DNA from: an uncultured bacterium
Lineage (GTDB): Bacteria; Patescibacteriota; Minisyncoccia; Phycocordibacterales; DATDWN01
Direction: 5' to 3'
Length of the DNA: 64,000 nt
Assembly (NCBI GenBank): GCA_903861205.1
Contig: CAIOTC010000020.1
Span: forward strand, 133,273-197,272
In this document: positions 9,472 to 49,792 of the stretch, piece by piece
How positions within the stretch are numbered: position 1 is the stretch's first letter
Layout of the letters: every line of letters starts with the position of its first letter
Program-made: the position numbers and the translations under genes
The notes under the pieces: model-generated
Told to the model about the DNA's origin: nothing
What the model saw: only the letters and a program-made list of their open reading frames with translations
Databases searched by the model: none

Positions 9472-12417
9472 CTAAACTATCACAAAGTTCAGCAACCTAT
9501 CCTGAATATGAATTGTTTTAACAATTTTTTTGCCGGACAGCCACTTATCCACATCCGGCATTTTCTGGGCCAAAGAAACCGCCTCGTCCTGCGTTTGGCC
9601 GGCCGGAACAGTCATTTGGGCTCGCACTTTGCCGTTTATTTGGACGACAAAAGATACTTCGCTTTCTTTCATTTTTTTCGGATCGGCCTTGGGCCATTTT
9701 TGCGCCGATAGAGATTTTTTATTACCAACAACCTGCCACAATTCCTCGGCAATATGCGGAGCAAACGGAGACAGAAGCAAAATCAATTTTTCGTATTGCT
9801 CGCGAGAAACTTTTTCCGCTTTTTCGAATTCATTAACCAAAATCATCATGGCACTAATAGCCGTGTTGAAATGCATCGTCTCGATATCGTCCGTAACTTT
9901 TTGGATTGTTTTGTGGAGTAGAGTTTCTGTCGTAGCTAACGCCTTATTTTTTTCATTGGCAAGGGTGCCCCTTGCCACTTTGAATTGCAGTCGCCACACG
10001 CGTTCCAAAAAGCGTCGCGATCCGGAAATGCTGTTCGTATCCCACGCGATGGCCTGATCAAACGGACCCATAAACATTTCGTAAACGCGCAAAGTATCGG
10101 CGCCGTACATTTTGACAATATCGTCCGGATTTATGACATTTCCGCGCGATTTTGACATTTTTTCGCCATTTTCAGCCAAAATCATGCCGTGCGAGGTGCG
10201 TTTTTGGTAAGGCTCCTTTGTCGGCACGAGTTTCTGATCATACAAAAATTTGTGCCAAAATCGCGAATAAAGCAGATGCAAAGTGGTGTGTTCCATGCCG
10301 CCGTTGTACCAATCAACAGGAGTAAAATATTTTAAATTTTTTGGATCAGCAAATTTTTTGCTATTTTTTGGATCGGCGTAGCGCAGGTAGTACCACGACG
10401 AACCGGCCCAGTTTGGCATTGTGTCCGTTTCTCGCCTGGCTTTGCCGCCACATTGCGGACATTTAGTATTAACCCACGATGAAATGTCAGCCAGCGGAGA
10501 CTCGCCAGTGTCAGTCGGTTTGTAATTTTTCACCTTTGGCAAAACAAGCGGCAAATCTTTTTCCGGAATAGCGATCCAGCCGGGGTTTGCAAGCTCACCT
10601 TCTGAAAATTCTGATTTTGAATTTTTATTGGAAATTGGAAATTGGAAATTGGAAATTCGTTTTTTGCAATTTTCGCAAAAAACGGTCGGTATCGGCTCGC
10701 CCCAATATCTCTGGCGCGAAAAAATCCAATCGCGCAGTTTGAAAGTTTCCACCCATTTTCCTCCGGCGAATTCGGTGATTTTCTTTTTTACATCTTCGCT
10801 AGACAATCCATTGAATTCTCCAGAATTTATCGAAACACCTTCATCGCAAAAAGCATGAACTGGATTATTAAATCGATCGTCCCAAATAAAAAATTCCGCG
10901 CATTTCAAATTTTTGTCTGATTTCAATTCCTGCCAGCTCATCCAAGCGACTTCGTGCTTATTTTTTTCATCTTCAGTCACAATGGCTCTTTTTTCACTAG
11001 CCAACTCGAAAACTATCGTGCTGAAATGTGCCTTTCTGTTTTCATCTTTATGCTCAGCGTAAAAATGACACTCCACCGGACCGCCGAGAGTTTTGATGTA
11101 TTTCAATTCGCTGTAACCTGTCTCCTCCAAAATTTCGCGTCGAGCAGCCTCAATTACGTCTTCACCTCCCTCAACTCCGCCGGTCACAAATGTCGTCCAT
11201 GGAAATTTTTTCCAGCGCAAAGTCAAAATCTTTTTTGTTTTTGGATCGATGATGATGGCGTGAATGGCATTTCTTTCGACGGTTTTTTTGTCCGCTCTCG
11301 GAAGTTCAGTTTGGTCAGTTACTTTTGGCACAATCACTTCGCGAATCGGCAAATTGTACTTTTGGGCAAATTCAAAATCGCGATCATCATGAGCCGGCAC
11401 GGCCATGACGGCACCCGTGCCATAGTCAGCCAAAACGTAGTCGGCAATGAAAATCGGAACCAGCTCACCATTGGCCGGATTTATTACCCTGATGCCTTTC
11501 ATTTCCACGCCGGTTTTTTCTTTCTTGTCATCCATCCTGTCAATGGCCGATTTGGTCGAAACGGATTTTATATAATTTTCGACTTCTTGTCTGTTTTTCA
11601 AAAATTCCAAAAGTTTGCCGACCATTTTGTGTTCGGGAGCCAGCACTATATATGTCACCCCAAAAAGCGTATCAGGGCGCGTGGTAAAAACTTTTATTTT
11701 ATCCTTTTGGCATTGGCAGAAAAAATCAATCTCGGCGCCTTCGCTTCGGCCGATCCAATTTCTCTGCTGCGTTTTTATTTGTGGCAAATAGTCGACGAGG
11801 TCGAGATCCTTGTCCAATCTGTCGGCGTATTTGGTGATAGCCAGCATCCACTGCTCCTTTTCGCGCTTTTCCACCGGCGTGCCGCACCTCTCGCAACAGC
11901 CACCCACCACCTCCTCGTTGGCCAAACCGATTTTATCTTTCGGACACCAATTAATCGACATTTTCTTTTTGTAAGCCAAACCATTTTTGAACATCTGCAG
12001 AAAAATCCACTGCGTCCATTTGTAATATTTTGGGTCAGTCGTGTTTATTTCCCGCGACCAGTCAAAAGACATTCCCAATCCTTTAAATTGTTTTCTGAAA
12101 TTATCGGTATTCGTTTTTGTGACAATGGCTGGTTGAATCCCAGTTTTAATCGCATAATTTTCCGTCGGCAAACCGAAAGCATCCCAACCAATTGGAAAAA
12201 GAACATTAAAATCTTCCATCCTGCGTTTACGAGAGATAACATCCATTGCGGTATAACCGCGAACATGACCGGTGTGAAGTCCGTCACCGGACGGGTACGG
12301 AAATTCCATCAAAGAATAATACTTTTTGCCTTTGCTTTTGGCCTGGAAAGTTTTTTTTCTTTCCCATTCTTTTTGCCATTTTTTTTCAATAGATAGATGG
12401 TTGTACTCTTTTGGCAT
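9472..12417 (-). CDS. leuS: leucine--tRNA ligase carrying an inserted Nudix-hydrolase domain (residues approx. 378-500)
   Basis: HTGHVRGYT (HIGH), TTRPDT editing motif, KMSKS; Nudix box GGVEGGEDVIEAARREILEETGY in the insertion. Confidence 0.93.
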   Translation of the reverse strand: MPKEYNHLSIEKKWQKEWERKKTFQAKSKGKKYYSLMEFPYPSGDGLHTGHVRGYTAMDVISRKRRMEDFNVLFPIGWDAFGLPTENYAIKTGIQPAIVTKTNTDNFRKQFKGLGMSFDWSREINTTDPKYYKWTQWIFLQMFKNGLAYKKKMSINWCPKDKIGLANEEVVGGCCERCGTPVEKREKEQWMLAITKYADRLDKDLDLVDYLPQIKTQQRNWIGRSEGAEIDFFCQCQKDKIKVFTTRPDTLFGVTYIVLAPEHKMVGKLLEFLKNRQEVENYIKSVSTKSAIDRMDDKKEKTGVEMKGIRVINPANGELVPIFIADYVLADYGTGAVMAVPAHDDRDFEFAQKYNLPIREVIVPKVTDQTELPRADKKTVERNAIHAIIIDPKTKKILTLRWKKFPWTTFVTGGVEGGEDVIEAARREILEETGYSELKYIKTLGGPVECHFYAEHKDENRKAHFSTIVFELASEKRAIVTEDEKNKHEVAWMSWQELKSDKNLKCAEFFIWDDRFNNPVHAFCDEGVSINSGEFNGLSSEDVKKKITEFAGGKWVETFKLRDWIFSRQRYWGEPIPTVFCENCKKRISNFQFPISNKNSKSEFSEGELANPGWIAIPEKDLPLVLPKVKNYKPTDTGESPLADISSWVNTKCPQCGGKARRETDTMPNWAGSSWYYLRYADPKNSKKFADPKNLKYFTPVDWYNGGMEHTTLHLLYSRFWHKFLYDQKLVPTKEPYQKRTSHGMILAENGEKMSKSRGNVINPDDIVKMYGADTLRVYEMFMGPFDQAIAWDTNSISGSRRFLERVWRLQFKVARGTLANEKNKALATTETLLHKTIQKVTDDIETMHFNTAISAMMILVNEFEKAEKVSREQYEKLILLLSPFAPHIAEELWQVVGNKKSLSAQKWPKADPKKMKESEVSFVVQINGKVRAQMTVPAGQTQDEAVSLAQKMPDVDKWLSGKKIVKTIHIQDRLLNFVIV
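9957..9979 (-). repeat. in-frame palindromic mini-insert GTGGCAAGGGGCACCCTTGCCA inside leuS (encodes KVARGTLAN)
   Basis: Identical 23-24 nt shared with cysS and recR; perfect 10-bp stem with a 3-nt loop. Confidence 0.75.
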
Positions 12418-13528: not shown

Positions 13529-14566
13529 TCAAATTCTAAACTCCACAACATCACCATCCTTGACCACATACTCCTTCCCTTCCGTTCTCACAAGCCCTTT
13601 TTCGCGGGCCTTCGCGTAGGAGCCGGCAGAGAGCAGTTTGTCCCATTCGATCACTTCGGCACGAATAAATTTGTCGCGGAAGTCGGTGTGAATGGCCATG
13701 CCAGCCACGGGCGCAGTGCTATCGCGAACAATCGTCCAAGCGCGCGACTCGTCCTCACCGGTCGTGAAATATGTCATCAGGTTCAAAGTCTCGTACGCTT
13801 TTTTGATAAGATCGTCAAAACCTTTTTCAAAAATCGGATCAACTTCGACGTACGGCCCGGGAATTCCCGCCTCGTCGGTGGGCAAATTTTCTTTCACTTC
13901 GGTCAAGTTTTTGGCCGCTGCTTCTGAAGCGTTGAGCACATACAAAATTGGCTTCATGCTCAAAAGTTGCAAAAGTTTTACGTATTCGATTTCCTTTTCG
14001 TCCAAACTAGCAAGAACTGTTCTTGCTAGTTTACTGTCCTCTAAAACTTTTTGGATTTTGGCCAGTGCCTCACCCTCTTCGACCGCTTCTTTTTTGTGAG
14101 ATTTGATATCCTTTTGCAGACCGGCGCGGCGTTTTTCCACCGTCTGCAAGTCCGCTAAAATAAGTTCAAGGTTTATGACCTCAATATCGGAGAGCGGATC
14201 GATTTTATTGTGCACGTGAATGATATCTTTGTCCTCGAAAATCCGCACCACCTCAGCGATGGCATCCACCTCACGAATATTCTGCAAAAATTTATTGCCG
14301 AGCCCCTCACCCATCGATGCGCCCTTGACCAGCCCCGCGATGTCGACAAACTCCACCACGGCCGGAATGGTTTTGGCCGACTTGCTGAACTCCGACAATT
14401 TCCACAGTCGATCGTCCGGCACCGGCACAATCCCGACCGACGGATCAATCGTGCAAAAAGGATAATTCTCCGCCGGCACGGCTTTTTTTGTCAGCGCATT
14501 AAAGAGCGTCGACTTGCCGACGTTCGGGAGGCCCACGATTCCTATACTTAGAGCGGAAGACGTCAT
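13529..14566 (-). CDS. ychF: ribosome-binding ATPase YchF (Obg-like)
   Basis: GIVGLPNVGKSTLFNALT G1 motif; TGS-like C-terminus DGDVVEFRI. Confidence 0.92.
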   Translation of the reverse strand: MTSSALSIGIVGLPNVGKSTLFNALTKKAVPAENYPFCTIDPSVGIVPVPDDRLWKLSEFSKSAKTIPAVVEFVDIAGLVKGASMGEGLGNKFLQNIREVDAIAEVVRIFEDKDIIHVHNKIDPLSDIEVINLELILADLQTVEKRRAGLQKDIKSHKKEAVEEGEALAKIQKVLEDSKLARTVLASLDEKEIEYVKLLQLLSMKPILYVLNASEAAAKNLTEVKENLPTDEAGIPGPYVEVDPIFEKGFDDLIKKAYETLNLMTYFTTGEDESRAWTIVRDSTAPVAGMAIHTDFRDKFIRAEVIEWDKLLSAGSYAKAREKGLVRTEGKEYVVKDGDVVEFRI

Positions 14567-16259
14567 TGTTTTTGTTTAAATTATCGTGTTGTGTAGCGTC
14601 CGAGCCATAGCTATATTCAGGACAGAAGAAGACATAAATTTCGCTTAGATTTATTAGACCGTACACTTGCAAGTCATTGGTGCCAGCCAGCACTTTGTTA
14701 ATAACTTGTCTAATAATGGCCTGTTTTGCTTTAAAATTCAAGCCCTTGAGTTTTTGTAATGCTTCCCCTGCAAACATTTTAACCTCGTCTTCGTTCGGTA
14801 ACAGCACATCATCCTTTGTTACGGCTTCCAAATGAGCTTTGTTTATTTGATCTTCAAATGAACGAATTTTTTCTCGCAAGGGTTTTACATATTCTTCAAA
14901 CTTCTCAAGTGTGATAACTTCCTGAGCATATGCTTTGGCAAAGCGGTCCTCTTGCGATCGCAATTTTACGATTTCTTTTTGCGTCAGATCGGTATCAATT
15001 GACATTTTGTTCAGCACATTATTTCCGCGAGTATTTTTCCATCGCTCGATTTGCTCAAGCAGCAAAGTCGGTGAACTCATAACCTCTTTCATTCTTTCCC
15101 ATACAGCCTCGTCGGCAATTCTGGCGTTGATTCCTGGTTGTTTGCATGTCGGAGGAAATGGAAATGTATGGACACGATTGGTGCATCTGTAATAGAGGTG
15201 TTTGCCTTTCTGCACACCTTCCCCTGCCCTTCTGCCACCACAGACACACCAAATCATGCCAGCCAAGAGATATTCGTTTACTTTGTTTCTGCCAAGAGTC
15301 TCAAAATTCTTTTTCAATCGCAATCCAGCCCGTATAAACAAATCTTTGTCTTCGATAATCGCAGGGACTGTTATCGGGTACCATTCAGTTTTTGGTCTCA
15401 TTTTCCTGCTAGTCTTTTTTATTTTCCTGTACTTTTCAAATTTTTTCGGATTTTCTGGAACTACCGCATATGATGCTCCCCAGTATGTCGTGCCGATAAA
15501 AACCTCGTGTCTTAACAATGTGCTGAGAGTGCTTGTACTCCAAACACCTTTAAGACTTTTTCTTGGTTTTATACCAGTTTTTTGCAACTCTCTGACAACA
15601 CCCCTGACAGTCAATCCATCATCAGCAACCATTTTAAATATATTCTTTATAACATTCGCTTCATATTCGTTGATTTCGTAATGACCGACAACATACTCTG
15701 GAGTTCCGCGTTTTCCTTTGTTTGGAATGTAGTTATAGCCGTATGGAGCTTCGCTGGTCAGGACATGGCCATTTTTAACTCTGCTAATTTTTCCTAATCG
15801 AAATCTTTCTTTGATCTTCATGCGTTCATACTCAGCAAAAACACCTCTCATTTTATACATGATGACATCCTCGTCATTTTTTGGTGGAGGTATAGTAACA
15901 AAAAGTACAGGAATCTCCAGCTCCGATAATTCTTCTATTATCAGTTCTTGCCAAGCACCTCGTCTTGCTAATCGATCTGGGTCATAGGTAAGCACGGCAT
16001 CCCAAATTCTCTTTTTTGCATCAATTCGTAACTGATCAAGATCTGGCCGATACAGTATGTCCCCGCTCCATCCCTCGTCTTTGTATGTTTTAACAATTTC
16101 AAAACCGTGTTCTTTGGCATAAGAATTTACTTCTGCTAGTTGGACCTCAATTGTCTGTTGGTCCTCCTGATTTGAGGTTGAGACCCTTGCATACAAGGCT
16201 ACGAATTTGATGTTTTTTTGTGTTAATTCAATCATGGTTTTGTTGTTATATTTTAGCAA
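14499..16259 (-). CDS. large serine recombinase / integrase (resolvase domain + recombinase domain + zinc ribbon); C-terminus overlaps the ychF 5' end by about 68 nt
   Basis: ALYARVSTSNQ catalytic Ser motif; CVCGGRR...YYRCTNR zinc ribbon; long coiled-coil C-terminus. Confidence 0.85.
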   Translation of the reverse strand: MLKYNNKTMIELTQKNIKFVALYARVSTSNQEDQQTIEVQLAEVNSYAKEHGFEIVKTYKDEGWSGDILYRPDLDQLRIDAKKRIWDAVLTYDPDRLARRGAWQELIIEELSELEIPVLFVTIPPPKNDEDVIMYKMRGVFAEYERMKIKERFRLGKISRVKNGHVLTSEAPYGYNYIPNKGKRGTPEYVVGHYEINEYEANVIKNIFKMVADDGLTVRGVVRELQKTGIKPRKSLKGVWSTSTLSTLLRHEVFIGTTYWGASYAVVPENPKKFEKYRKIKKTSRKMRPKTEWYPITVPAIIEDKDLFIRAGLRLKKNFETLGRNKVNEYLLAGMIWCVCGGRRAGEGVQKGKHLYYRCTNRVHTFPFPPTCKQPGINARIADEAVWERMKEVMSSPTLLLEQIERWKNTRGNNVLNKMSIDTDLTQKEIVKLRSQEDRFAKAYAQEVITLEKFEEYVKPLREKIRSFEDQINKAHLEAVTKDDVLLPNEDEVKMFAGEALQKLKGLNFKAKQAIIRQVINKVLAGTNDLQVYGLINLSEIYVFFCPEYSYGSDATQHDNLNKNNDVFRSKYRNRGPPERRQVDAL

Positions 16260-42116: not shown

Positions 42117-42299
42117 GCGAGTATTATATCACATCCAAACCGCAACCATCGTGAGTAAAATTTTTCAAATATTCATCGCAGAAATTTTCTCTTTCGTCGC
42201 CTTTCAAAAAGTCCGGAGCAAAAACTTTTATTTTGTAAGGCATTATGGTCAGTTTGGTTTTGCTTCCGTCAAATTCAACTCCAACGACGACTTCTCGTA

Positions 42300-43030
42300 C
42301 CCTGTCGAGGCCTGATTCTCTCGGTGCGGCCTGCATTAATCCCCACCACGACGATTCTGGCCGGCGTGCACGGCTCCTACAACGCCGTCTGGGTGAAGGG
42401 CGTTTACGGGGAAGATACGTTCTACTATGGCCGCGGCGCGGGATCGCGGCCCACCGGTGTAGCGGTGGCGAGCGACCTGATGCGGGTGGCGCGCGAGATT
42501 CGCAACGGCAGCCCGCAGCGCGTCTCGCCGTTCGCGCACGAGCGGCTGGGCGAATACAAGCCCGTCCCGGTGACGGTGCAGCGGCGCGGCCGCCGGCCCG
42601 GCAACGCGCGCGAGCTGCGCAACGCGGTGGCGCCTTCCCGGCCGCTGCACACCTGTGCCGGACAATCACACCGGCCTCGCGGCAAGCGGCCTGATTTCAG
42701 TAGTTTAGAATGTGGAATCGCGGTTGCATCACAGGCCGCAACGGCGAGCCAGCCGCGCGCGATACGCTCGTCGGTGCGGCTGGTGACCGGGTAAGACGAG
42801 GCCTCCCCGCGCGTGCCGTCGGCGCGGCTGTATCGCACGGTCGCCGTGAAGGTGCGGTGGCGGGCTTGATATCGCGGTGCACGATGCCGCGGCCAAGCCG
42901 CACCTGGCGCCGTCAGCGATCCGGCTGCCCGGCGGGCGCAGCGACGGGTTGTTGGTGAAAGCCAGGTCGGTATTCGAGCTCGCCGCCAGGCTTGGGCGAG
43001 GGTGGCGTCGTCCGCCATTACAGCCCACTC
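42300..43030. other. approx. 0.7-kb foreign DNA segment with about 70 % GC embedded in a 40 % GC genome
   Basis: Abrupt composition shift; long spurious ORFs on both strands typical of high-GC DNA. Confidence 0.7.
42324..42500 (+). pseudogene. C-terminal catalytic-domain fragment of a homoserine dehydrogenase from a high-GC donor (70 % GC)
   Basis: ILAGVHGSYNAVWVKGVYGEDTFYYGRGAGSRPTGVAVASDLMRVAREI matches the HSD FYGRGAG..PTA.AV..D region; no ACT domain follows. Confidence 0.45.
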
Positions 43031-43186
43031 ACTACCCGCCCATATTCCATTGCCAAAGTATACGCTCTTTGTTTGTAATGAAGAACATAAGTCCACCGGC
43101 TGCTGCGCAGAAGCAGAAACAACAACGCAGAAAGTAAGGCCAGCCCGCAAGAATAGTGATGTGCACATGTAATAGTTCTCCACTAG

Positions 43187-44047
43187 CTAATTGGATAGAG
43201 TATCCATATTGAACGAACACGCCGTATTTTGAATGTTGTCTGGTAGTAGGGTAAACACTTGTCCGTTGGTGCGAGCAGCTGCCGTGTCATGAGCTTTGAT
43301 TCTGTCGGTGGTATTAAGCATCTGTGCTAGCACTTGTCTCCAAATTCCCTGGTTACGTTTTCCCAGATAGTCTAAGCACTCAATTGAGTCGATCTCTGCT
43401 ACACCCGCATCAGTTGCCTGTTGATCAGTCTGCGAAAGTAACGCATGTTGGATAGCCACGGCCTGCTCTTTCAGTGCCTCTCGGTGACGAGCAGAATCCG
43501 GCGCCGAAAAGATAATCAGTCGCTGAACATCATCCCTCACGCCATCACCGTCTGAGTCTATACCGGCAATGGTCGCTTTTCCCGCCACGCCAGGATCGGG
43601 TGGAAGCACGACTGGAATGGTCGTCGGTGCCAAGGCAGCAAACTGAAGGACTGGCGACAACACTCGCTTCAATTGTCCTGGAAAGGCGGCGGACACTTGA
43701 AAGTTGAAGGAGGCCGGCTGAGCCTCGTTGAGCGTGAGGACAGCTGTGAAGACCTTATCCCCAGCCTTCACATCCCCTGCTTTCCCGTTATCCCCCATCG
43801 TGGCGACAATGGTCTGTACGCCGGCTGAGTTAAGCCGAAGCAGATTAACGCCCGTAGGGATAGCAGACGGCGTGCCGGAAAGATCCACGGTGAACGTCAC
43901 TTGAGTCGGCGTGTTAACCACGACAAGACCGGGCGTTGCGATTGGCGCAGCAATCGTGGGCGGATTTTGCCCATACAGCAGAATCCCGCCCAGCACGAGG
44001 CAAGCGACAAGACCGCACCCGAAGAATAGAACAGATTTGTATTTCAT
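43187..44047 (-). CDS. hypothetical secreted protein (signal peptide; about 55 % GC)
   Basis: MKYKSVLFFGCGLVACLVLGG signal/TM; composition differs from the host. Confidence 0.5.
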   Translation of the reverse strand: MKYKSVLFFGCGLVACLVLGGILLYGQNPPTIAAPIATPGLVVVNTPTQVTFTVDLSGTPSAIPTGVNLLRLNSAGVQTIVATMGDNGKAGDVKAGDKVFTAVLTLNEAQPASFNFQVSAAFPGQLKRVLSPVLQFAALAPTTIPVVLPPDPGVAGKATIAGIDSDGDGVRDDVQRLIIFSAPDSARHREALKEQAVAIQHALLSQTDQQATDAGVAEIDSIECLDYLGKRNQGIWRQVLAQMLNTTDRIKAHDTAAARTNGQVFTLLPDNIQNTACSFNMDTLSN

Positions 44048-46135: not shown

Positions 46136-46447
46136 TTAATCATCAAGCTCACTATCTGTAAACTGGCTTTTGATTACCGCTTTTCTATATTTTAAAATTT
46201 CTAACTCTTTTTTATATTCAGAATTTTTGTTTTCCTCCATTGTTATCATATTTTCCAAAGCTAAAATCGAATATTTAAAATCCTCTTTTAGATTTTCTTT
46301 TATATCATCCATACTTAAAGATCTATTTTCAACTTTTAGTTTTGCGTTTAAGATTTCAAGTTCTTCATCAGACTCCTTGATTTCCCGATCCTTGTTGATA
46401 ATTTCTTTTTCAGTGTCATCAATAAATTGTTGTTTGATATTTTTCAT
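46136..46447 (-). CDS. hypothetical coiled-coil protein
   Basis: 103-aa, Lys/Glu-rich heptads. Confidence 0.35.
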   Translation of the reverse strand: MKNIKQQFIDDTEKEIINKDREIKESDEELEILNAKLKVENRSLSMDDIKENLKEDFKYSILALENMITMEENKNSEYKKELEILKYRKAVIKSQFTDSELDD

Positions 46448-46480: not shown

Positions 46481-47572
46481 TTATTTTCCTGATTTTCTTC
46501 GGTTGCAATCCTTGCACAACATCTGACAATTTTCGGAAATCGTTTTTCCACCCTCGTGCCATGGTGTTATGTGATCCGCTTCCATTTCTCCTATTTCAAA
46601 ATGTTCTCTGCATTTTACACAAATTCCTTTTTGTTTTTCATATGCTTCCCTCTTTTGGTTTGGAGTAAAGTCACGAATTGAAAGATATTTTTCCTGTCTC
46701 GTTAAAACATAAGGATAAATACCGGATTTTTTAGTCACATCTTCGTCCTGCATTAATTTAATAATTTCTTTTTCAAGTTTCTTTAGATCAAGTTTCTTGT
46801 CCTTGAATTGGTTGTATAGTTCACCCCAATTCACACCCGCCATTTCCCTTCGATAATTTACAAACATTTTCCGTACCCACGCAATTACATTTTGAAAGTA
46901 TTGCCATAGTTCGTCAGAGTTTTTATTGTGCTGATGTTTTGCCATGTAGTCGGCCACATTACCATTATTGATCCACAATAGTGCGGTCTCCAAATATTCT
47001 TGCCTGATTGGTGAGCCGGTCACTAATTGCCCGCCATCACTGGCCAATAGGTATGCCGCGCAGTTTGATTTACTAAATTTGAGCTTTGCGTCAGAAAGCC
47101 ACGGACCAGTATAGACTGCATTCAAAAGCTCCTGTGGTGTAAGCTTTTCACCTGCCGTATTAATCACTTCAAACCAGTCAATTCTCTCTTTATCAGTACC
47201 ATCACAAAAATAGATCATCAATTCGTAATCCAAAATCAGATTCTGTTCTTCTTTTGTGAGATTGTGAAAAAAACGATCGTGTATGGAAAAGTCGCCGTTG
47301 ACATACTGACAAATACTTAGAGTGCGTTGCTGACCATCGAGGAGCTCATAACTTCCGGAACTGTTTTCTATCCAATACATAACATTGAGTGGAAACTTAT
47401 GACTCACAGTCTTTATTACGGCATTGCGTTGCTCCGGTTTGTAGACAAATTCGCGCTGATATTTTGGTCGGATATCAAGCTTGCCTTTGTAGGCGACGAC
47501 ACCCTCCTCATCACTATCTTTGTAGCCAGCAAATACCTCACGAACAGTAATTTTGTGTAGGTTAATTTTCAT
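46481..47572 (-). CDS. DUF262 (ParB-like, DGQQR) + HNH endonuclease fusion; GmrSD-like type IV restriction-type nuclease
   Basis: SYELLDGQQRTLSI; C-terminal EADHITPWHEGGKTISENCQMLCKDCNRRK. Confidence 0.75.
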   Translation of the reverse strand: MKINLHKITVREVFAGYKDSDEEGVVAYKGKLDIRPKYQREFVYKPEQRNAVIKTVSHKFPLNVMYWIENSSGSYELLDGQQRTLSICQYVNGDFSIHDRFFHNLTKEEQNLILDYELMIYFCDGTDKERIDWFEVINTAGEKLTPQELLNAVYTGPWLSDAKLKFSKSNCAAYLLASDGGQLVTGSPIRQEYLETALLWINNGNVADYMAKHQHNKNSDELWQYFQNVIAWVRKMFVNYRREMAGVNWGELYNQFKDKKLDLKKLEKEIIKLMQDEDVTKKSGIYPYVLTRQEKYLSIRDFTPNQKREAYEKQKGICVKCREHFEIGEMEADHITPWHEGGKTISENCQMLCKDCNRRKSGK

Positions 47573-48126
47573 TAGTTTCCCTTATGCAAATCCTCTTCTT
47601 CGTAATAGTACGATTGCTCAATGCCCTTCATGTAAACTTCGCGATCGTCTATTTTGTCAGTCAAAGAGCCGCGCAGAAGTTCGCGGATTTCCAAACTGTT
47701 AATGGGACTGCGTTGCATGGCGTTCAGATAATCCTGTTTGTCAACTTTGGCCCAATCGACGCACTTCTTCAGATTCTTTTTCAAAATCAAATCCAACCAA
47801 ATCCGCATGCTTCGGCCGTTGCCCTCCATAAAAGGATGTGCGATGTTCATTTCCACGTATTTGACCACTATCTCTTCAAAGGTATGCTCGGGCATTTTCT
47901 CTACCTTAGCCAAACTTTCCACCAGATATAAATGAGAGGCAAAGCGAAAACCGCCCTTGCTCAAATCTTTATCGCGAATTTCTCCAGCAAAGCCATACAG
48001 ACCGCCAAAGAGATGGGTATGGATCTGTTGCAAGCCCCTGGTGGTGCCGACTTCAAAACTATCGATCTCCCGACTGCCAAAAAGTTTTATAGCTCGCTCT
48101 TTACTGATTGCATCAATATTTTCCAT
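47572..48126 (-). CDS. Fic/Doc family protein (AMPylation-type Fic domain)
   Basis: [12 protein letters not shown] = HPFx(D/E)GNGR Fic motif. Confidence 0.85.
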
Positions 48127-48166
48127 AGTTTAATTATACCATATTTACACCTCCTCTGCCACTTCG

Positions 48167-48198
48167 CGAACAGTAATTTTGTGTGGGTTGATTTTCAT
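48167..48198 (-). repeat. duplicate of the 5' end (first 12 codons) of the DUF262-HNH gene, giving a 17-codon dead-end ORF upstream of fic
   Basis: cgaacagtaattttgtgtGggttGattttcat vs cgaacagtaattttgtgtAggttAattttcat at 47541-47572. Confidence 0.7.
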
Positions 48199-48204
48199 GT
48201 TATT

Positions 48205-48720
48205 TTATTTCACAATCTTAACTAGGTCATTTTGATCTTTTACAGATTTCAAAATACCAAATAAAACATCTAAATATTTCTTAATTTCTTTATATTCATT
48301 ACCATAAATCATTCGCATTTTCCCAAAAATATAGTCATACCTGATATCTATAAAGTCTTCTATCCTTATTTCTGTATCTTTTGTAGTTTCCATTATATAT
48401 TGAGTATCACTTTTAGTAATTTTTTTAATTCCTATTTTCAACAATTCATTGTCACCCAATTATTTTTTAATATTTAATAAATTATGAGACAAACTTGTTA
48501 GCTTCTTTTTCAGATCGTTCTCATTTAAAAACGATCCCAACATAACAACTCTTGATTTCAAAAATAATTCAACATTGTAAGAAAGTAGGATATAGATTGA
48601 TCTTATAAAAGCGGGGTCTGTTTCCTGATTATCATATAGATAATCTTGAAGAAATGTTAAGCCTGTAGATGATCCTGTTGTTAGCCGAAAAGCTATTTTA
48701 TATTTTTCTTCATTACTCAT
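48205..48720 (-). pseudogene. about 170-codon AT-rich reading frame interrupted by one in-frame TAA (annotated ORFs 48460..48720 and 48205..48459)
   Basis: Both ORFs share a frame and abut with no gap; the second uses a TTG start right after the stop. Confidence 0.3.
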
Positions 48721-48724
48721 AAAA

Positions 48725-49792
48725 TTATTTTTTTACTTTCTTATTTCGTATTAAAATTCTTGCGAACGGATGTTTACCTAATACAGTTTCATCTTTACCA
48801 CCACCGTTCAAAAAACCCAACAATTTAAACTGCTCTGGATTATACTTATCAATAAAGGTTTTTGGAACTGCGATTGCCCCGTCATAATCTAATGGTATTT
48901 CTGCAACCTTTGAAACCTCAATAATATCTTGGTAGTCATACTTCGGATATTCTTTAGTTGTATATTTTTTATAAAGTATTAGTTTTTCATGACGCTTTGA
49001 AGTATCAAGATTTGTAAACCAAACTATGCTACCCATACTAAAAAACTTCGTGCCCTTTTCAATTTTTATTCTTGACTCTGTCTCAATATCATAATCATCA
49101 GGAACCTGAAACCACTTTGTGCCACCATTATCATAACCAAGCCACAACTTATTTTCTTGGATAAGTTTGAAAGTTTCTTTGTATGTGATAGCGTTCTGGC
49201 TACCTAAAATCAAAAACTTTTTATCATATTCCACCAACTGCGCGACATATTCCCGAAACAAAGAAAATGGTGGATTTGTCACCACAATGTCAGCCTGTTT
49301 TAGCAGTTCTATACTTTCTTTACTTCTAAAGTCCCCTTCACCCTCCAATGGAGTCCACTCATTATTTTTATTCGCCTTGAGTTGTTCGGCAATATCACGC
49401 AAGTCAAATGCGCCGTCGCCATCCATATCATCCACCTCACTCACAATGAATTTGTTCGCGGTTACTTTAGGACGACCTTTGGGCGTATCTAATACCTTGT
49501 CGTCGCCGAATAGTCCGAGTTGTGTGTTGGCAATGGGAGATGGTTTGTAGCTAGTAGCGATAAGTTTTTTTAATCCGAGAGCGTTGAATTTTGAAGCGAA
49601 GTATTTGAAAAAATTACTCTCAAATGGGTCATCACAGTTGCAATACACCACCTTGCCGCGAAATTGTTCTTTGTAATGTTTTAGCTCCTTTTCAATATCA
49701 ACAAGCTGGGTATAAAACTCATCTTTCTTTGCAACGTTTGCTTTGTGCAGGTTGTTATTTAATGATTTCTTTTCCATAAATTTCATGTCCAA
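48725..49792 (-). CDS. adenine-specific DNA methyltransferase (NPPF motif; EcoRI-methylase-like family), orphan
   Basis: DEFYTQL, VVTNPPFS (motif IV), DYDGAIAVPKTF. Confidence 0.6.
   Translation of the reverse strand: MDMKFMEKKSLNNNLHKANVAKKDEFYTQLVDIEKELKHYKEQFRGKVVYCNCDDPFESNFFKYFASKFNALGLKKLIATSYKPSPIANTQLGLFGDDKVLDTPKGRPKVTANKFIVSEVDDMDGDGAFDLRDIAEQLKANKNNEWTPLEGEGDFRSKESIELLKQADIVVTNPPFSLFREYVAQLVEYDKKFLILGSQNAITYKETFKLIQENKLWLGYDNGGTKWFQVPDDYDIETESRIKIEKGTKFFSMGSIVWFTNLDTSKRHEKLILYKKYTTKEYPKYDYQDIIEVSKVAEIPLDYDGAIAVPKTFIDKYNPEQFKLLGFLNGGGKDETVLGKHPFARILIRNKKVKK

Follow-up and report, generated by a model that had tools for sequence, protein, structure and literature searches.

A truncated copy of a nuclease gene start as the probable scar of Fic cassette entry into a patescibacterial restriction-modification operon

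In a 64,000-nt stretch of DNA from an uncultured member of the Patescibacteriota (contig CAIOTC010000020.1), a gene for a Fic-domain protein, fic, lies within what appears from its gene content to be a type II restriction-modification (R-M) operon, composed of an M.EcoRI-family methylase gene (M) and a gene for a DUF262-HNH nuclease (R). A short copy of the start of R, which we call the stub, stands upstream of fic. We refer to the whole 64,000-nt stretch as the window and to the Fic/R-M region within it as the window locus; all coordinates are window-based unless a related locus is named. In the direction of transcription, the locus carries the following features.

48725 to 49792, minus strand: M, gene for an N6-adenine methyltransferase of the M.EcoRI family, 355 amino acids (aa) with the end ...FARILIRNKKVKK before the stop (Pfam, PADLOC).
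48199 to 48724, minus strand: AT-rich insert of 526 bp, 24-27% GC (composition, translation).
48145 to 48198, minus strand: 17-codon open reading frame (ORF), MKINPHKITVREVAEEV, closed by TAA (repeat search, translation, probe test).
48159 to 48165, minus strand: junction heptamer GAAGTGG (alignment, local-alignment tests).
48133 to 48162, minus strand: predicted Fic promoter, with a -35-like GTGGCA at 48162-48157, an 18-nt spacer, TG at 48141-48140 and TATAAT at 48138-48133 (promoter scan).
47572 to 48126, minus strand: fic, gene for a 184-aa AMP-transferase of the NmFic type, class III (Pfam Fic, NCBIfam, PDB, PADLOC).
47534 to 47572, minus strand: repeat copy within R, comprising codons 1-13 of this intact gene.
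46481 to 47572, minus strand: R, intact gene for a 363-aa protein with DUF262 (GmrSD_N, DGQQR motif) and a C-terminal HNH domain (Pfam, PADLOC).

The methylase matched EcoRI_methylase of Pfam (E=1.3e-133) and MTase_II of PADLOC (E=3e-122); its mechanical ORF start is a TTG, and translation probably begins at an ATG, that of codon 3 or 6. The nuclease gave Pfam matches to GmrSD_N (E=3e-20) and HNH (E=5e-12) and a full-length match to PADLOC REase_II PDLC03418 (E=6e-133), and it has more than 8000 homologues, 75-85% identical, in hundreds of genomes, mostly metagenome-assembled genomes of Patescibacteria. Fic scored 289.7 bits against the NmFic equivalog of NCBIfam, NF046029, whose cut-off is 230, aligned with the PDB entries 3s6a/2g03 of NmFic over residues 1-177 (E=1e-76) and matched PDC-S04, a candidate single-gene system of PADLOC (E=2e-90). 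Its catalytic motif HPFxEGNGRSxR satisfies the class III pattern HxFx(D/E)GNGRxxR. When the C-terminal SYYYEE is set against the inhibitory motif (S/T)xxxE(G/N), the serine and the inhibitory glutamate are there, and the last residue is E where NmFic has G. Unlike NmFic, the window protein has an extra 7-residue tail that ends at the nuclease ATG, and its gene is placed inside an R-M operon. The TAA of fic and the ATG of R share one base (TAATG), through which translation of the nuclease is predicted to be coupled to that of Fic. On the other side of the gene, the predicted extended -10 (TG-n-TATAAT) ends only 6 nt before the Fic ATG, so that the mRNA made from this predicted, self-contained promoter is probably leaderless. 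The core A-ATATG-TATAA- upstream of Fic is conserved in 8/8 aligned loci and reads exactly AAATATGGTATAAT in five.

A repeat search returned a single outstanding direct repeat on the minus strand, formed by 47535-47572 and 48161-48198, in which 34 of 38 nt agree (89%) at a start-to-start spacing of 626 and between whose copies fic (47572-48126) is situated. In codon register the two copies span 39 nt and differ five times (ATC/ATT, CCA/CTA, CGC/CGT, GAA/GAG and GTG/GTA). All five differences are transitions, four of them synonymous at the third position and one giving P/L, and they cluster at both ends of an identical core of 18 nt, which is the longest exact run. A 32-nt probe from the repeat, allowed up to 3 mismatches, matched these two sites alone in the 64 kb and nothing in 100 shuffles; a second copy of the nuclease's own 5' end was found in 0/80 related loci that have no Fic. 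These two results rule out a chance repeat. The preliminary description of this DNA, which had reported the repeated nuclease gene start, the 17-codon ORF and the position of fic between the copies, is thus borne out on anatomy (34/38 over 38 nt; 0/100 shuffles), apart from the small errors of a single C/T mismatch and a 625-bp distance in place of 4-5 mismatches and 626.

The 17-codon ORF consists of nuclease nt 1-39 (48198-48160) followed by GCAGAGGAGGTG and a TAA at 48147-48145. Its ATG stands in the same A-rich context as at the genuine start of the nuclease, and 18 nt separate its end from the Fic ATG, features that would suit a leader peptide, an upstream ORF or an attenuator acting on fic and the nuclease. 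We consider such a function hardly credible, however, as the length, frame and end point of the stub vary between loci, the stub at one related locus (L089, below) is without the ATG part, and the predicted Fic promoter lies downstream of most of the stub. Moreover, the predicted RNA fold around the stub is no better than that of shuffled sequences (z=-0.23) and Rfam gave no match in the window, the stub region included; on the same two grounds an RNA element around the stub was ruled out. The 17-codon ORF is best taken as a scar, and its annotation as a gene or a switch is unwarranted.

The organisation of related operons provides a view of the locus before insertion. We compared 80 species-representative GTDB loci (L004-L083), 76 of which have a methylase gene in the flank. 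The methylase stop and the nuclease ATG are no more than 10 nt apart in 57/76 of these operons and exactly 1 nt apart in 43/76 (...AAAAAATAAT followed across the junction by ATGAAAAT...), while 19/76 have a gap of 352-1922 nt and 0/76 a gap of 11-300 nt. The end of the window methylase, ...ARILIRNKKVKK before the stop, is the motif seen at the tight junctions of relatives, its C-terminal motif being that of methylases directly upstream of the nuclease in related loci; L049, with the same methylase C-terminal type as the window, exemplifies the uninterrupted junction. Judged by the 43 operons that have it, the ancestral state would be methylase stop, one nucleotide, nuclease ATG. At the corresponding place the window holds two units, the AT-rich insert and then the stub-Fic segment. 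Since these two inserted units replace the nuclease ATG after the methylase stop, the earlier view of fic as a cassette is right in outline, with fic one of two.

The AT-rich insert fits exactly between the methylase stop and the stub ATG. Its reading frame would encode a protein of ~172 aa that is split by an in-frame TAA (48460-48462) into ORFs of 86 and 84 codons, of which the 86-aa half matches residues 1-86 of proteins of 165-180 aa (48 representatives; 77% with P0253) and the 84-aa half residues 88-165 of P0253 (69%). Neither ORF has a match in Pfam, PADLOC, NCBIfam or PHROG. The insert is probably a pseudogenised earlier cassette. The right end of the insert (AAATAAAATAAC) also resembles the 3' end of M (AAAAAAATAAT).

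Loci that combine Fic with the nuclease were found by starting from relatives of Fic, and every one of them has nuclease 5' fragments. Nuclease 5' stubs exceeded the null (maximum 12 for anchored extension, 28 bits for blastn-short) only where Fic is near R, that is, in the window, L089, L096/L097 and L100, the last with two stubs. In L089, Fic is joined to the nuclease through TAATG, and ~130 nt upstream of Fic lie codons 8-15 of that locus's own nuclease (22/23). In L096/L097, a stub of ~13 nt, Fic, a stub of ~23 nt, Bro-N and the nuclease follow one another. The order in L100 is methylase, two ORFs, a 24-nt stub, a 184-aa Fic, an 84-nt stub, a second Fic type (289 aa) and the nuclease. Other Fic genes at duplications of a nuclease 5' end, a point that the preliminary description had raised, are hence present at L089, L096 and L100, which are independent loci. 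A generally conserved Fic-nuclease pair was ruled out, Fic lying within 4 kb of the nuclease in 0/80 of the GTDB loci and most Fic relatives being located elsewhere.

Several Fic units without the nuclease keep its beginning nonetheless. In L088/L095, Fic is followed by the first 33 nt of the nuclease and then by another cassette; in L098/L099 the arrangement is Fic-TAATG-ATGAAAATCAAC, fused to a TspO-like ORF; and in L101 it is Fic-TAATGAAAGTGAAC. The Fic units without a downstream R (L088, L098 and L101) still keep TRATGAAA..., the start of R, after the Fic stop, and the same junction of Fic stop and ATG is found in the window, L089, L088 and L098.

Some of these loci show further peculiarities. 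The second Fic-family gene of L100 (3586-4455 of that locus; 289 aa) is unrelated to the first, its stop overlaps the nuclease ATG (ATATGA), and a TTGACA-N-TATACT promoter ends 6 nt before its own ATG; two Fic types at the same spot are a hint of selection for Fic-nuclease linkage. In L096 (4693-5040 and 5587-5604), the Fic unit cuts short a RhuM-like gene, whose own 5' end (AAATCCAAAGCCCCCCAA) recurs behind the next nuclease stub, while a 42-aa ORF just upstream, ending ...IKKVKDKK before its stop, resembles a leftover methylase C-terminus; the truncation and the small ORF look like nested scars. In L088, the Fic cassette and an AdoMet decarboxylase-like cassette have a near-identical promoter-plus-start (1021-1040 vs 1625-1644; TATGGTATAATTAAACTATG vs TATGATATAATTAATTTATG), and a nuclease 5' stub precedes each; a cassette format common to both, made up of stub, extended -10 and leaderless ATG, is suggested.

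The left junctions differ in every locus, and the stubs are 39, 24, 84 or ~13-23 nt long or comprise codons 8-15 (overall ~12-84 nt). Among 84 alleles, the best match of the stub is the nuclease of its own locus in 4/5 cases, by which a remnant of some unrelated old allele was ruled out. The window Fic is closest to that of L101 (95%) and L088 (93%), where R is missing, is 87% identical to that of L089 and is most distant from that of L096 (79%); the window nuclease is closest to that of L096 (87%) and most distant from that of L089 (68%). Given this variation in stub length and left junction, and the disagreement between the trees of Fic and nuclease, events that produce the order stub, Fic and nuclease have recurred independently. 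One ancestral stub-Fic-nuclease module inherited everywhere was ruled out by the differing left junctions, the allele-specific stubs and the incongruence of Fic and nuclease.

The differences between each stub and the present gene start also bear on the kind of event. Pooled over the window, the two L100 stubs, L089 and L096, 17/19 differences are synonymous third-position changes (binomial P=6e-7), and in the 84-nt stub of L100 this holds for 8/8. The two copies accordingly stem from two functional alleles and not from in-place copying followed by decay; by this pattern, they diverged while both were part of working genes, as a resident and an incoming allele or as chimeras of the two. The claim that Fic was inserted by a mechanism that duplicates ~35 nt of target is therefore upheld in its first part, insertion with a footprint, by the uninterrupted junction in 43/76 relatives, the recurrence of the layout at independent loci and the own-allele stubs in 4/5 cases. 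It fails in its second part, since neither 17/19 synonymous differences nor stub lengths from ~12 to 84 nt agree with plain target duplication.

Insertion with long target duplication has reportedly been described by Nobusato et al. (2000). Events of this kind around R-M genes involve long repeats of variable length, occur without mobility genes and are known mostly from naturally competent species (Furuta, Abe & Kobayashi 2010, NAR, PMC2853133). Our locus resembles those cases in that the inserted unit is flanked by direct repeats of more than 30 bp and variable length, lacks a transposase or integrase and is linked to R-M genes. It differs in that there the R-M system is the insert, whereas here fic is the insert and the R-M operon the target, and in that there the repeats are near-identical copies of one target, whereas here they derive from the coding 5' end of the nuclease and differ as alleles do. 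With direct repeats around a single inserted gene and this precedent (PMC2853133), classical duplicative insertion, in which a transposition-like event or a staggered cut duplicated ~35-39 nt of target and the upstream copy then decayed neutrally, has something in its favour. We nevertheless rate it very unlikely: neutral decay would spread changes evenly over codon positions, the duplicated length is inconstant between loci (~12-84 nt), and neither terminal inverted repeats nor a transposase are present.

We propose that the stub is the scar of a homology-assisted recombination that embedded a Fic cassette in the R-M operon, a reading with two nuclease alleles and a promoter-bearing Fic unit to which we assign a probability of about 0.65. 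What was observed is the anatomy of the locus, the undisturbed junction of relatives, the recurrence of the layout and the origin of the two copies from different alleles; the route of recombination we infer. A tight M-R junction would have been opened by recombination, and a compact Fic unit, made of ~45 nt of promoter with an extended -10 and the 184-codon NmFic-type gene, would have been joined directly before the nuclease ATG, with the conserved 5' end of the nuclease gene as exchange partner. Two 5' ends from different nuclease alleles, one resident and one arriving with the Fic unit, would then have come to flank fic. The upstream one would have been cut off after ~33-40 nt, leaving the non-functional 17-codon stub, and the downstream one would run into the intact nuclease, which may now depend on the Fic promoter for its transcription and on TAATG for translational coupling to Fic. 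The insert between the repeat copies contains Fic as its only ORF, plus its promoter.

Two routes could lead to this product. On the first, which resembles homology-facilitated illegitimate recombination (HFIR), DNA of the form promoter-Fic-nuclease' would pair with the resident nuclease on one side and be joined by microhomology within the first ~40 nt on the other. On the second, a Fic unit with nuclease-derived arms on both sides would integrate homologously in an ends-in or Campbell-like manner. This second route corresponds to the mobility idea of the preliminary description. In its favour are the tails of nuclease sequence retained by Fic units outside nuclease loci; against it stand the left junctions, no two loci having one in common. 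Two features expected of HFIR are present: a conserved anchor lies next to the imported segment, the nuclease being 75-85% conserved across hundreds of genomes, and the remnant differs from the incoming allele as alleles do (17/19 synonymous). For Saccharibacteria, natural competence has been demonstrated (PMC10633639).

The heptamer GAAGTGG lies at the left junction itself. It equals nuclease nt 34-40 and continues the stub in register, and it is also the left end of the conserved region upstream of Fic; its counterparts are GAAGTAG in L101 and GAGGTGG in L098, and the window, L101 and L098 are homologous upstream as far as GA(A/G)GT(G/A)G. The heptamer is either the microhomology of an illegitimate join or the inherited tail of an older stub. 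Older, decayed nuclease-like sequence was indeed detected upstream of Fic in post hoc local alignments at loci without the nuclease: in L101 (29/39) the score was reached by 1/200 and 4/300 shuffles, in L088 by 1/200 and 3/300, and in L098 by 8/200 and 46/300; two control loci gave no significant result in the same test. These modest values make older stubs at L101, L088 and L098 a lead suggested by the alignments.

The operon as a whole is a recombination mosaic of at least four alleles, in that the nearest relative is a different one for the N-terminal part of M, its C-terminal (specificity) part, R aa 14-267, R aa 284-363 and Fic. This mosaic shows that recombination occurs at the operon and does not tell the route by which the DNA entered.

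Several points weigh against the proposed recombination. Fic-plus-R loci that are independent number ~5 in total, and a search of a metagenome collection with a strict junction pattern, which required the ...KGN ending before the stop, returned one further contig only, L095, a copy of L088. One L100 difference enters the pooled codon-position test twice, as it is common to both stubs of that locus (f1 and f2). No empty site of the same species was found among contigs of the same population; either copy may be the resident one, and the event may have taken place in this lineage or in a donor that supplied the finished arrangement. The HFIR-like and the ends-in or Campbell-like route predict near-identical products, and both fit the data. 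The GA(A/G)GT(G/A)G common to L101 and L098 admits both readings, and the figures for older stubs are modest and post hoc. Finally, the Fic promoter, its leaderless start and the coupling of translation are predicted features.

No transposase or integrase was found among the genes scanned from 41.5 to 57 kb, no inverted repeats lie at the insert borders, and the window contains no tRNA gene; a tRNA or an integrase as the determinant of the integration site was rejected on these grounds. The junction pattern had no match in viral contigs, by which a viral origin was ruled out. A recombinase acting in integron fashion at an att-like site, either at the M-R junction or at the nuclease 5' end, could account for the cargo of 0.35-1.9 kb that sits exactly between M and R in 19/76 related operons, for inserts bracketed by junction copies (~21 nt in L026, ~20 in L044, 14 in L045) and for the two-cassette arrays of L096 and L100, in which a copy of the nuclease 5' end follows each cassette. 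Such site-specific capture is nonetheless highly improbable: there is no integrase between 41.5 and 57 kb, the only recombinase being a serine recombinase 31 kb away, no attC-like inverted repeats are present, the junction positions vary, the cassettes bring their own promoters, and the gene tables of related loci list no conserved recombinase neighbour. Compared with an integron cassette, the window unit lacks IntI or any other integrase within 41.5-57 kb and an inverted repeat at its borders, and its fic has a predicted promoter of its own.

Other small cassettes are exchanged between conserved flanks without dedicated mobility genes, among them the minimal mobile elements of Neisseria and the PeSL (promoter early stem-loop) promoter cassettes and mini-circles of T4-type phages. 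To our knowledge, minimal mobile elements leave no duplication; with PeSL, a promoter-bearing repeat flanks each cassette, and the repeats are regulatory and are not pieces of an adjacent gene. HFIR has been described for displacement arrays of effector-immunity modules belonging to type VI secretion systems (T6SS), in which gene remnants are left behind, and the same source cites orphan toxin arrays of Rhs and contact-dependent inhibition (CDI) systems (Kirchberger et al. 2017, PMC5361080). The window locus is like the T6SS and Rhs arrays in having a conserved anchor segment, a displaced resident copy, remnants and serial arrays, and later spread by homologous recombination. Those arrays, however, keep 3' orphan modules downstream of a constant 5' region. 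Here it is 5' stubs that accumulate, upstream of a gene that is intact, with cargo that bears no relation to the anchor, and all this within an R-M operon of bacteria of the candidate phyla radiation (CPR).

The preliminary description had also suggested that recombination between the repeats excises fic as an ON/OFF switch. In a fuller form of this idea, the 38-nt copies serve as recombination sites, and a Fic circle of ~626 bp is excised and re-integrated by a single crossover at similar nuclease 5' ends, changing nuclease expression. A Campbell crossover between a circle-borne and a resident 5' end would yield two chimeric, inter-allelic flanking copies, in agreement with the allele-type differences, and the differences clustered at both ends of the 18-nt core fit this as well, as does an assembly contig, L001, that begins exactly at the nuclease ATG. 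Outside R loci, the Fic units of L088, L098 and L101 retain R nt 1-12/33 to their right and sequence resembling R to their left, as a circle opened again, or a unit moving together with its arms, would lead one to expect. We regard a reversible cassette as unlikely all the same. The longest exact identity is 18 nt at 89% overall, and efficient RecA recombination usually requires ~23-27 bp. One hopping circle would give the same junction throughout, whereas left junctions and stub lengths differ at each locus, and no recombinase gene lies nearby. With fic in place, the nuclease ORF is complete (363 aa), and its translation is predicted to be coupled to that of Fic; excision is thus not needed to turn the nuclease on, and the switch itself finds no support.

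Relatives from the same population point the same way. All 7 contigs, which come from several metagenome assemblies, keep fic, and exact-protein look-ups of the nuclease, Fic and the 86-aa ORF returned no fic-less variant, a weak test in that assemblies are consensus sequences from which rare excision could escape. The contigs that span the stub (L084, L085, L086 and L087) are identical across it, and the 12 mismatches of L086 are confined to the contig ends. Independent metagenome assemblies break at the nuclease borders: L001 starts at the ATG (47572), and L002 and L003, from different samples, both end at 46438, 43 nt past the stop. These breaks may reflect graph branching among many nuclease alleles or strain heterogeneity.

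The 19 related operons with a wide M-R gap carry Bro-N, RhuM, an AbiEii-like AAA_21 ATPase, T5orf172, DUF2130, DUF4145 or ORFs without assignment. Several of these inserts start at the position of the nuclease ATG, and in L026 the cargo ORF is fused to 12 nt retained from the nuclease start. In 10/19 cargo operons the true ATG is preceded by a copy, rich in A, of the methylase 3' end (~21 nt in L026, ~20 nt in L044, 14 nt in L045); as traces of insertion these copies are only suggestive, because their motif is rich in A and selection for translation may maintain it. PrrC (EcoprrI), RloC, Fic/Doc and RhuM have been described as further lines of defence embedded in R-M operons (Anantharaman et al. 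2013, PMC3710099). The kinds of cargo found here agree with that account (Fic, RhuM, Bro-N, the AbiEii-like AAA_21 ATPase and DUF4145), whereas the cases treated there are mostly type I hsd operons and their entry route is not addressed, in contrast to the two-gene type II operons with visible footprints studied here.

We tentatively extend the proposed recombination to the M-R junction in general, a generalisation that we hold to be rather doubtful. In this operon, which is very widespread in CPR bacteria, the junction might be a recombinase-free landing pad at which small, promoter-bearing and probably leaderless toxin or defence cassettes with short arms from the 3' end of M and the 5' end of R integrate by homology, whichever similar operon they meet. 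Such cassettes would include Fic, the second Fic type, Bro-N, RhuM, the AbiEii-like ATPase, DUF4145 and others, and integron-like arrays could be built in which a copy of the nuclease start follows each cassette.

Beyond the locus, the window is chromosomal, with genes for leucyl-, alanyl- and cysteinyl-tRNA synthetases (LeuRS, AlaRS and CysRS), DnaB and DinB. The named sources of the nearest homologues of both fic and R also point to a member of the Patescibacteria or CPR. The region from 42 to 52 kb is a compositional mosaic of same-strand genes, in which 42200-43200 has 60-70% GC against ~30-48% elsewhere in the genome and the ORF at 42425-43183 (252 aa) has no Pfam or PHROG match. In the leucyl-tRNA synthetase (9472-12417, minus strand), residues 382-501, which follow the editing domain, form an inserted NUDIX domain. 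A large serine recombinase (14499-16259, minus strand; Resolvase, Recombinase and Zn_ribbon_recom) lies 31 kb from the Fic locus, with no link to it found.

Toxins embedded in R-M operons are well known and the route by which they enter is not; here the footprints are legible, as stubs of the nuclease start, allele-type differences between the copies and cassettes with a minimal promoter of their own. By analogy with the embedded defence genes above, Fic may be a second-line or back-up toxin of the R-M system, and if the landing pad is real, an embedded toxin may ride on the R-M system or guard it. The locus offers a concrete model for how CPR bacteria, with small genomes believed to rely on the uptake of DNA, may acquire genes in the absence of mobility genes, and the duplicated gene start would give a simple sequence signature by which such events can be found elsewhere.

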